Of a stretch of 6,771 nucleotides of DNA, positions 1-1,856 are shown piece after piece. Below the pieces are notes generated by a model, which had not been told where the DNA came from, did not search any database, and was given only the letters and a program-made list of their open reading frames with translations. This DNA is from a virus (lineage: Duplodnaviria > Heunggongvirae > Uroviricota > Caudoviricetes): IMG/VR virus record IMGVR_UViG_2534681934_000014; one strand, written 5' to 3'. The translations under genes were made by a program, and so were the position numbers. Within the stretch, counting starts at the first letter, position 1, and every line of letters begins with the position of its first letter.

Positions 1-938
1 GGGACCATCTGGTCGCAGTACTGCGCAATGGCATACAGCGCCCACTTGTCCACATCCGCCGCCCCCAGGCGTTTTCCCATGCCGTAGCGCGGGTGAGTCA
101 GCATGTCCCACAGGCACCAGGCAGGGTTGTTGCTGTATGCCGGTTTCAGGCTGCCGTCCCAGATGCCGCTGTACGTGCGTTTTTCCGGGTCATAGTTTGA
201 CGGCACCTGGATGATGCGACCGCGGATATGGTAGTTCACCGTCATCTGCTGACCGCCAAACTGCTCCGCATCCACCTGCAGCCCCACAATCGCCGTGTTC
301 GGGTAGCACTGTTTCACATCGATGATTTCGGTGTATGACGACCACAGCGTTCTGTTCTGCAGCTGGTCCGTGGTGCTGTCCGCCGTCTCCCTGACCATCC
401 GGATGTTAAAGGGCCGGGGCGGCAGATTATCCAGAATCACCGACGCCAGGAACTGCGAGGTGGTCTTGCCGTTAATGGTGACATCCTTTTCCGTCACCCA
501 GTTACCGTTACGCTGCAACTGAATCAGCAGTCGGACAGAAGAGTGATTACGGTCGCCCTTTGAGGTGGTCTCCAACAGTGACTGCACCCCGAAGGTGACC
601 CGCAGGCGGTCAATGTTCGCGGACGTAATGGTGCGCGTCACCGGCTTTGCCTTCGTCACTTCCACGCCCAGTCCGGTTTCAGCTCCGGAGGACTCAAAGC
701 CTTCAGGTGGTGTCTGCTCCTGCTCCCCGGCGCGCCAGACCGCTGTCACACCATGTATCACAGGATTACCGTCCGTGTCCGTCAGCGGGGTTTTGTTCAC
801 CAGAATACTCTGCAGCCCCTTCACCGGACCTTCAATCGGCCCTTCACCAATGGCGTCAATCACGCTCATCATCTGCGTGGACTTAAGATTGTCCTTTGCC
901 TCTACCGGCGTGTGCCCCTTGCCGCCCCCTTTACCCAC
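1..938 (-). CDS. J: Tail tip / central tail fibre protein J, N-terminal 312 codons (continues past window start)
   Basis: Minus-strand translation from GTG at 938 reads VGKGGGKGHTPVEAKDNLKSTQMMSVIDAIGEGPIEGPVKGLQSILVNKTPLTDTDGNPVIHGVTAVWRAGEQEQTPPEGFESSG...TITSANIDRLRVTFGVQSLLETTSKGDRN, closely matching the lambda gpJ N-terminus as I recall it (MGKGSSKGHTPREAKDNLKSTQLLSVIDAISEGPIEGPVDGL...). The frame is closed by a TGA at 1013-1015 and has no in-frame ATG upstream; GTG at 938 sits 10 nt after an AGGAGAGGGGGA Shine-Dalgarno-like stretch. Not in the ORF track because it is truncated by the window edge. Confidence 0.9.
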   Translation of the reverse strand, partial: MGKGGGKGHTPVEAKDNLKSTQMMSVIDAIGEGPIEGPVKGLQSILVNKTPLTDTDGNPVIHGVTAVWRAGEQEQTPPEGFESSGAETGLGVEVTKAKPVTRTITSANIDRLRVTFGVQSLLETTSKGDRNHSSVRLLIQLQRNGNWVTEKDVTINGKTTSQFLASVILDNLPPRPFNIRMVRETADSTTDQLQNRTLWSSYTEIIDVKQCYPNTAIVGLQVDAEQFGGQQMTVNYHIRGRIIQVPSNYDPEKRTYSGIWDGSLKPAYSNNPAWCLWDMLTHPRYGMGKRLGAADVDKWALYAIAQYCDQMV

Positions 939-979
939 TCTGTCCCCCTCTCCTGTCTGATGTCTGAATCTGTTTATGC

Positions 980-1012
980 CAGAAAACAACAGGCACCCCG
1001 GAGGGTGCCTGT
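980..1012 (-). terminator. Putative rho-independent terminator (minus-strand sense) downstream of the small ORF and upstream of J
   Basis: Perfect 10-bp GC-rich stem (989-998 pairing with 1003-1012, ACAGGCACCC / GGGTGCCTGT) with a 4-nt loop; on the minus-strand transcript it is followed by UGUUUUCUGG. On the plus strand the same hairpin is not followed by a U tract. Confidence 0.5.
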
Positions 1013-1013
1013 G

Positions 1014-1133
1014 TCATGACGGAATAAAATTTCTGAAACTCTTCACATTTCCGGCAATTGCCTGTAGCCGCAATAATGACGCTGCATTACTTTTTTGATG
1101 CCTGAAAAATAACTCCATAACGTTAATCTTCAT
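1014..1133 (-). CDS. Hypothetical small protein (39 aa), candidate moron ORF between I and J
   Basis: ATG at 1133 preceded by GGGAGAG about 6 nt upstream; translation MKINVMELFFRHQKSNAASLLRLQAIAGNVKSFRNFIPS; TGA at 1014-1016; immediately followed by the hairpin/U-tract at 980-1012. Sits in an AT-rich island (~1014-1140) between GC-rich tail genes. No homolog recognised; too short for the ORF track. Confidence 0.25.
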   Translation of the reverse strand: MKINVMELFFRHQKSNAASLLRLQAIAGNVKSFRNFIPS

Positions 1134-1141
1134 CGTTCTCT

Positions 1142-1179
1142 CCCGCAGCTCCGCTAACTCTGCGGGATTTTTTTATTTT
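1142..1179 (+). terminator. Putative rho-independent terminator in plus-strand sense (antisense to the tail operon)
   Basis: Stem CCCGCAG (1142-1148) pairing with CTGCGGG (1160-1166), 11-nt loop, followed by ATTTTTTTATTTT (1167-1179). The U tract follows the hairpin only on the plus strand. The I stop codon (1179-1181) lies at the end of the T tract. Confidence 0.45.
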
Positions 1180-1856
1180 CATCCCCGCCCGATAACCACC
1201 ACTTTCCCGTCTCCGCCCTCATCACGGGTGCTGATGTCCTGGGATATCCGTCGTGAACCAACCAGCATTTCACCATAAGGCACCGGCATCGGGTTCCCCT
1301 GGGCAATCATGTTATCCAGTGACGAAAAATACGTGTTCTGTTTACCGTTATCCGTTGCGCGGTAATCCGGTGTTTTTTGCCTTCGGTGCCAGCATCTGGG
1401 CCACACCGCCCAGTATCATGCTGGCCCCCAGTGAAAACAGCATCGTGGTGGCAGAAAAACCACCGGCTGCCAGGGCTGAACCCCATAACGCCATTGATGC
1501 CCCGGCCGTGAAGAAAGAGCCCACGATGGCTGCCGCCCCCAGCACAATCTGCAGTCCACCCTTTCCGGCCCGGCCAGTCGCGGCACAATATGGATGACCG
1601 CCCCCTCACCCAGAGGTTCGTGAAGACGGGCGTACACCGCCTCCGGTGCCGTGTCCTCACCGCGAATACGTATCTGGTACCAGCCTTCGTTCATCTGACG
1701 GCGGAATCCCGGCACCTGTAACGACAGCGCCCGGATGGCTTCCGCTGCCGTGTTCACATACAGGCTGAGGCGGCGGCCAAATCGTTGCAAATCCCCGTGA
1801 AGGCAGATGCGTGCCAGTGGCGGTGACGCCAGACAGAATGCGTTCGTCGTTGCCAT
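1179..1856 (-). pseudogene. I: Tail tip assembly protein I, reading frame disrupted by two compensating 1-nt indels
   Basis: Three successive minus-strand segments match lambda gpI in order. Frame A from ATG 1856: MATTNAFCLASPPLARICLHGDLQRFGRRLSLYVNTAAEAIRALSLQVPGFRRQ...VIHIVPRLAG. Frame B (~1570 to ~1376): KGGLQIVLGAAAIVGSFFTAGASMALWGSALAAGGFSATTMLFSLGASMILGGVAQMLAPKAK. Frame A again (~1376 to 1179): TPDYRATDNGKQNTYFSSLDNMIAQGNPMPVPYGEMLVGSRRISQDISTRDEGGDGKVVVIGRG. Switch points fall in a G/C run (~1566-1572) and a T6/A6 run (1373-1378). Read in frame A alone, the ORF gives 146 aa with a nonsense C-terminus and a stop at 1416. The ATG at 1856 overlaps the 3' end of K by ~100 nt. Confidence 0.8.

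Follow-up and report, generated by a model that had tools for sequence, protein, structure and literature searches.

What is encoded in the gap that separates tail genes I and J of a lambda-like prophage, and on which strand? The window, by which we mean the whole 6,771-nt stretch of DNA analysed here, carries on its minus strand the genes H, M, L, K and I and the beginning of J, with a low-GC spacer between the last two. An earlier note on this DNA had read the spacer as a possible moron encoding a 39-codon peptide or, alternatively, as a small RNA. Our analysis indicates that it is very probably a stand-alone small RNA (sRNA) gene, a copy of EcOnc22/23/24, which is read from the plus strand, against the direction of the tail operon. 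What looked like a peptide "moron" would then be a published sRNA gene, missing from the annotations, seen from the opposite strand, and this correction is the main value of the work. EcOnc22 has already been reported, and the entity itself is therefore known; the novelty added here is minor and consists of the strand and coordinates, the anatomy of the family, tandem cassettes, the relation to a hairpin of phage lambda and a complementarity to yjbJ.

The I-J spacer and the 39-codon reading frame

The spacer is delimited by the minus-strand stop codon of I (1179-1181) and the GTG start codon of J (936-938), and the annotation of phage VT1-Sakai gives identical limits. The gap of roughly 240 bp described in the earlier note (939-1178 as measured) is thereby borne out, as is its AT-rich segment between GC-rich flanks: GC content is 0.43-0.46 across 950-1199 vs. 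0.53-0.67 in the flanks (100-nt windows). The spacer is part of a Shiga-toxin-type prophage tail region. Positions 880-1240 (361 nt) match the I-J junctions of the Sakai prophages Sp15, Sp14 and Sp11 at 100% identity, and this stretch occurs unchanged in four of our collected records (L001, which is VT1-Sakai, L002, L003 and L004); the junction is 100% identical in phage VT1-Sakai (= Sp15 of E. coli O157:H7 Sakai) and in CP-1639. Outside the spacer, this window is about 97% identical to Sp15 and represents a separate prophage copy.

Versions of the junction that are 73-88% identical were found in 147 phage records, nearly all of them Stx-converting, and 804 of 5426 complete E. coli genomes (about 15%) carry the junction, with a median of 3 and a maximum of 9 copies per genome. 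Because the junction is kept across these phage records and genomes, chance is excluded as the source of the spacer's features. When the conserved block was searched for in a single genome of each species, a true homologue emerged in E. albertii only, the remaining 41 matches being chance. Carriage by Shiga-toxin phages, often in several copies per genome, gives the locus its wider relevance.

Compared with I of VT1-Sakai, the I gene of the window (1179-1856, minus strand) has a 1-nt deletion near 1570 and, 192 nt beyond it, an extra A at 1378-1383 (A6, where VT1-Sakai has A5); between these two indels the frame is shifted and a stop codon occurs. The prophage may be decaying and its I gene a pseudogene, or the two indels may be paired sequencing errors. 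In VT1-Sakai (L001 / AP000400 13525-14700 and 11228-13648), the J gene beside the spacer is annotated as mutation-split, and that prophage copy is therefore tail-defective, with the sRNA still expressed.

The minus-strand open reading frame (1133..1014) exists as described, 39 amino acids long, with an ATG start and a GGGAGAG sequence 4 nt upstream of it. As a peptide gene, however, it does not hold up. Among 127 scored copies of the spacer, the plus-strand triplet at the ORF start is CAT in 70, CGT (= ACG) in 48 and deleted in 9, the start thus being lost in 57/127. Translation from this point in 14 phage relatives gives 15-32 residues (15-39 aa overall) with unrelated C-termini, because indels shift the frame, and searches of the 39-aa peptide against Pfam and PHROG returned nothing. 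The pattern across relatives is not coding-like, which is the outcome that the earlier note itself had named as speaking against its proposal. Short "hypothetical proteins" are annotated inside the spacer in two phage records, in frames and at positions that differ. The features that made the ORF attractive have their origin on the other strand: the reverse complement of the sRNA core UUAAUCUUCAU is the ATG-AAG-ATT-AA of the earlier note, the "MKI" start is conserved because this core is conserved at the nucleotide level, and the "Shine-Dalgarno plus ATG" arises where the sRNA body, shortly before its terminator, is read as its reverse complement.

Correspondence with the Hfq-bound RNA EcOnc22

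Tree and colleagues listed 63 orphan Hfq-crosslinked RNAs for strain Sakai (Tree et al. 2014, Mol Cell 55:199; PMC4104026), among which EcOnc22 (Sp15), EcOnc23 (Sp14) and EcOnc24 (Sp11) are given as homologues on the + strand (Table S2). In that strain, EcOnc22 is made by uninduced lysogens, is crosslinked to Hfq, is destabilised in a delta-hfq strain and gives a northern-blot signal of about 85 nt (PMC4104026). Placed on the current Sakai record, the Table S2 positions fall inside the three I-J junctions. The published northern probe "EcOnc22/23/24" (Table S3C) matches the minus strand of the window at 1144..1110 and therefore detects a plus-strand RNA; its alignment has two gaps and one mismatch, which are most likely errors of text extraction from the PDF.

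The RNase E CLASH data confirm the strand. An EcOnc22 fragment, GCCTGAAAAATAACTCCATAACGTTAATCTTCA, was mapped at 2902717-2902749 (Waters et al. 2017, PMC5286369) and is an exact match to plus-strand positions 1100-1132 of the window; other fragments match the plus strand exactly at 1112-1149 and 1124-1154. In one chimera, the 3' arm derives from a paralogue and has the terminal sequence GGGAUUUUUUU, an argument for termination at the U7 run.

Reading the published positions requires a conversion. As the fragment at 2902717 begins at position 1100, window positions equal the old Sakai coordinate minus 2901617, and the Table S2 coordinates differ from NC_002695.2 by +135 at 2.9 Mb and about +142 at 1.27 Mb. 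The latter figure follows from the end of StxB2 at 1268347 on the current record and the AsxR peak at 1268494, which is stated to lie 282 bp downstream of stx2AB (PMC4104026); the +135 offset was established from the stx2B position together with the CLASH fragment. Unconverted, the Table S2 positions put EcOnc22 on the wrong element of the current record, with the Hfq peak falling at 962-1022, over the minus-strand hairpin, an assignment ruled out by the +135 offset.

Two matters of naming concern the same literature. In supplementary file 4 of Waters et al. 2017, the feature at 2902729-2902766 is labelled "asxR2"; the label is suspect because the read sequence is that of EcOnc22 and has no AsxR similarity, and it looks like a find-and-replace artefact (EcOnc2 to asxR). 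A 2025 paper returned by the literature search was set aside, its subject being EcOnc27, a different RNA.

No RNA feature is annotated at the spacer in the GenBank, RefSeq or phage records examined. Rfam searches found no family in the whole window at gathering thresholds and, at permissive E-values across 850-1300, chance-level matches only (E of 1 or more).

Anatomy of the cassette and the hairpin before J

The elements of the spacer are collected in the table below. Conservation was judged from 15 spacers collected by BLAST and about 130 further copies from IMG/VR, 127 copies being scored.

Table. Elements of the I-J junction, in window coordinates
Feature	Position	Strand	Basis
J ribosome-binding site AGGAGAGGGGG (954-944) and GTG start (938-936)	936..954	-	sequence, VT1-Sakai annotation
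I-J intergenic spacer, 240 bp, low GC	939..1178	.	ORF limits, GC profile, VT1-Sakai annotation
Terminator-like hairpin of the tail operon (sense), U-rich tail	979..1012	-	just upstream of the J ribosome-binding site
39-codon ORF (ATG), rejected as a gene	1014..1133	-	start and frame not conserved, no family match
Most conserved spacer block GAATAAAATTTCTGAAACTCTTCACATTT, upstream of the -35	1025..1050	+	15 BLAST-collected spacers
-10 box AATAAT of the predicted sRNA promoter	1072..1077	+	aligned position in 127 homologous copies
EcOnc22-type sRNA gene (probable)	1084..1174	+	5' end predicted +/- 3 nt; 3' end = U7 run
Hfq UV-crosslinking (CRAC) peak, converted	1097..1157	+	Tree et al. 2014 Table S2, 2902714-2902774
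A-R-N tract AAA AAU AAC, candidate Hfq distal-face site	1105..1113	+	inside the CRAC peak
Conserved single-stranded core UUAAUCUUCAU	1123..1133	+	consensus ttaATCTTc, 44 unique sequences
Rho-independent terminator of the sRNA: CCCGCAG, 11-nt loop, CUGCGGG, A, U7	1142..1174	+	terminator scan, MFE fold

At the -10 position, the 127 copies read TATAAT (74), AATAAT (26) or TATCAT (26). A promoter scan called no sigma-70 promoter in the window itself, because the -35 hexamer of this variant is poor (TTCCGG, 1049-1054); in a relative (L007), the same scan found TTCACA-16-TATAAT (11/12 matches), with the homologous terminator after it. Transcription would start near 1084, about 7 nt past AATAAT, and would stop at 1142-1174, for a product of about 85-90 nt; the length predicted from 1084 to 1174 is 89-91 nt, vs. 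the northern estimate of about 85 nt.

The block at 1025-1050, nearly invariant across the 15 BLAST-collected spacers, is a candidate UP element or regulator site; the IMG/VR set was gathered by the motif of this block and is for that reason unusable for judging its conservation. By eye, plus-strand positions 1032-1047 read TCTGA-N6-TCACA, which agrees with the CRP half-site consensus at 9/10 positions. Its centre falls at about -44.5 relative to the predicted start, a spacing that is non-canonical for class I or class II CRP sites.

The plus-strand terminator, which the earlier note had overlooked, has a 7-bp stem (1142-1148/1160-1166) and a T7 run (1168-1174), and reaches to within 4 nt of the stop codon of I. 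It is conserved in the 127 copies, where the stem arms are kept and the loop differs in sequence and length. The sRNA of the window folds at -20.3 kcal/mol (z = -3.9), and an alifold consensus of the 44 unique sequences of the family contains the terminator only, the 5' two-thirds having neither consensus structure nor covariation. These 44 sequences, of 90-103 nt, have a common layout. GCGUUA stands at the 5' end, and after it come a U run, a variable segment and the A-R-N tract; variable bases resembling CUCC lead on to the core UUAAUCUUC(A/G)U, and the terminator closes the RNA. At the tract, 41/44 members have at least three consecutive ARN triplets despite sequence variation, and the core is predicted to stay mostly unpaired in ensembles of the 12 commonest variants.

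Some records carry the cassette twice. In L064 (reverse strand, 2217-2715), L119 and L139, two tandem cassettes stand 179 bp apart, each with the conserved upstream block, and in the J-proximal one both the RNA body and the terminator differ, the latter being CTCCCG...TGCGGGAG with a T run after it.

On the minus strand, the strong hairpin and U-rich tail that the earlier note saw after its ORF were recovered as a terminator-like call: the hairpin at 1012-989 has 10 bp and a 4-nt loop, is followed by TGTTTTCTGG and folds at -27.2 kcal/mol (z = -5.9 vs. shuffles). It occurs in eleven sequence variants, with a compensatory C-G to U-A change in 22 contigs, and over the unique variants 108/110 pairs are kept as minus-strand RNA vs. 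102/110 as plus-strand RNA. These comparisons lend modest support to a role in the tail-operon transcript.

In L018 and 42 other IMG/VR contigs, the ACAGGCACCC hairpin at the equivalent of 989-1012 is replaced by CCCCGGTATC-AGCA-GATACCGGGG; this replacement belongs to the largest spacer type, has T-rich flanks and resembles a bidirectional terminator. At the position of the hairpin, the architecture is kept and the sequence is not. The lambda record (L183, NC_001416 19300-19800) has a terminator-like hairpin, AGCCCGCCGG-AA-CCGGTGGGCT with TTTTTG after it, which lies 16 nt ahead of J on the strand of the late operon; in the feature table of that record, the I/J coordinates are named "Lom"/"tail fiber", and the labels appear shifted.

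The I-J spacer of lambda is 64 nt long, is made up of little more than this hairpin and has no similarity to the cassette. The hairpin at 1012-979 is probably a tail-operon element with a counterpart before lambda J. Most simply, a cassette of about 165 bp (about 1013-1178) would have entered between such an ancestral hairpin and the stop codon of I. The moron proposal survives in part: the low-GC insert, its own signals and its absence from lambda stand, and the peptide product falls. Since the lambda spacer measures only 64 nt, "moron-like" is a fair description; the cassette has its own terminator, called in the window, and a conserved -10, with a consensus-like promoter called in L007 and none in the variant of the window.

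Possible modes of action and known systems

We infer that EcOnc22 acts by base pairing in an Hfq-dependent manner. Its terminator and U7 tail would engage Hfq at the proximal face, with the ARN tract bound at the distal one, leaving the unstructured stretch at ~1100-1140 (the variable segment, then the core) to pair with target RNAs; pairing could lead to RNase E-dependent decay or, as for AgvB and AsxR, to sequestration of the partner. EcOnc22 occurs in RNA-RNA chimeras recovered with RNase E (Waters et al. 2017, PMC5286369), in which its partners (yjbJ, ECs4701, ECs5349 and rRNA) are represented by 1-2 reads each. The only recurrent partner is yjbJ (ECs5028), with 1-2 reads each for EcOnc22 and EcOnc23. 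Three colinear blocks of complementarity connect yjbJ and EcOnc22, including a perfect 10-mer (CCAUAACGUU/AACGUUAUGG), and the duplex is predicted at -33.3 kcal/mol (z = -3.4 and -3.9), an energy matched by 1/300 shuffles of the target and 0/300 of the sRNA and found in about 0.2% of natural 65-nt windows. The yjbJ mRNA is a weak candidate target. The 10-mer lies in the variable segment, and partners may therefore differ between prophage variants. Within VT1-Sakai, a search for trans targets by exact complementarity gave 12-mers at best, none convincing, and a search by duplex energy gave at best -38 kcal/mol, in coding sequences and none at a translation start. A 2021 review lists the target and function of EcOnc22 as unknown.

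On a broader and decidedly speculative view, which we think rather unlikely to be right as it stands, the I-J junction of lambdoid prophages is a slot for one or two exchangeable Hfq-sRNA cassettes that share one scaffold and differ in about five target-recognition segments; if so, these RNAs, at up to nine copies per EHEC genome, could retune host stress mRNAs such as yjbJ and, as antisense partners of the I-J part of late transcripts, could allow resident prophages to hinder tail production by co-resident or superinfecting relatives. Target finding can draw on the corrected coordinates, on the yjbJ lead and on the family-wide layout of core, variable segment and ARN tract.

The same RNA, which is fully complementary to the I-J part of the tail transcript, might instead act mainly on the late mRNA after induction, in cis or in trans, through a ~90-bp duplex with RNase III cleavage or transcriptional interference that tunes I and J or acts between prophages. 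Its convergence with I, with an end so close to the stop codon, the presence of up to 9 related copies per genome and a cis-site complementarity of -92 kcal/mol, vs. -38 kcal/mol or weaker elsewhere in the phage, are in keeping with such control, under which tail production by co-resident related prophages could be hindered. We nevertheless regard it as unlikely, as Hfq dependence, the ARN tract and uninduced expression fit a trans-acting sRNA, and variation among prophages in the segment beside the core is unexpected for cis pairing alone. That the RNA is a functionless stable by-product, for example of a spurious promoter by a bidirectional insulator terminator, would agree with the few and varied CLASH partners and with a literature that reports no phenotype or validated target. 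Such a by-product would hardly be expected to keep its -10, ARN tract, core and terminator in 44 variants and about 130 contigs while the neighbouring spacer diverges, to bind Hfq and depend on it for stability, or to occur in tandem duplicated cassettes, and we judge this explanation improbable.

Readings that place the product on the minus strand fare no better. The small RNA ending at 980-1012 that the earlier note had offered as its alternative was right as to the kind of product and wrong as to strand and terminator (1142-1174). A minus-strand RNA that starts within the spacer and ends at 1012-979, perhaps forming a convergent or overlapping pair with EcOnc22, would explain the strength of the hairpin, its compensatory change and its better preservation as minus-strand RNA, and convergent sRNA pairs do occur elsewhere in prophages (Tree et al. 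2014, PMC4104026). Against it, no minus-strand Hfq peak is listed in the spacer, no minus-strand promoter was found there, and the presence of a pre-J hairpin in lambda, where the cassette is lacking, argues that the hairpin is part of the tail operon; such an RNA appears quite improbable. As for a protein-coding moron whose peptide aids the host or blocks phages, the ORF, the SD-like sequence, the downstream terminator and the two records with annotated "hypothetical proteins" are outweighed by the ACG or deleted starts, the varying lengths, the discordant frames of the annotated ORFs, the lack of Pfam or PHROG matches and the origin of "MKI" in the opposite strand, and we hold translation of this frame to be extremely improbable. 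A plus-strand, Hfq-dependent, trans-acting sRNA thus remains our preferred reading, and it is this RNA that we compare with known systems.

Like lambda OOP and P22 sar, EcOnc22 is short, terminator-ended and antisense to a phage operon; OOP and sar overlap coding or ribosome-binding regions of their defined targets and work via RNase III, whereas EcOnc22 overlaps only an intercistronic spacer and depends on Hfq. The moron concept reportedly goes back to Juhala and colleagues in 2000, and with the lambdoid morons lom and bor the cassette shares a promoter and terminator of its own, low GC content, insertion between conserved genes and expression from the prophage. It differs from them in that its product is a non-coding RNA, read against the late operon.

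AgvB and AsxR of EHEC are alike in being prophage-encoded, made by lysogens and Hfq-bound, with ARN motifs and Rho-independent terminators, and both they and EcOnc22 form families with conserved and variable parts. They differ in location (downstream of PR' near stx), in length (51-60 nt vs. about 85-90 nt) and in having known partners (GcvB and FnrS), those of EcOnc22 being candidates. Identity with either was rejected: the best local alignments score 14.5 and 11, which amounts to no similarity, the PR' location does not agree, and the ~42-nt conserved 3' region of the AgvB/AsxR/EcOnc03 group was not found in the sRNA. With EcOnc22/23/24 of Sakai, by comparison, the locus shares the spacer sequence, the I-J position and the strand, and no difference separates them at the sequence level.
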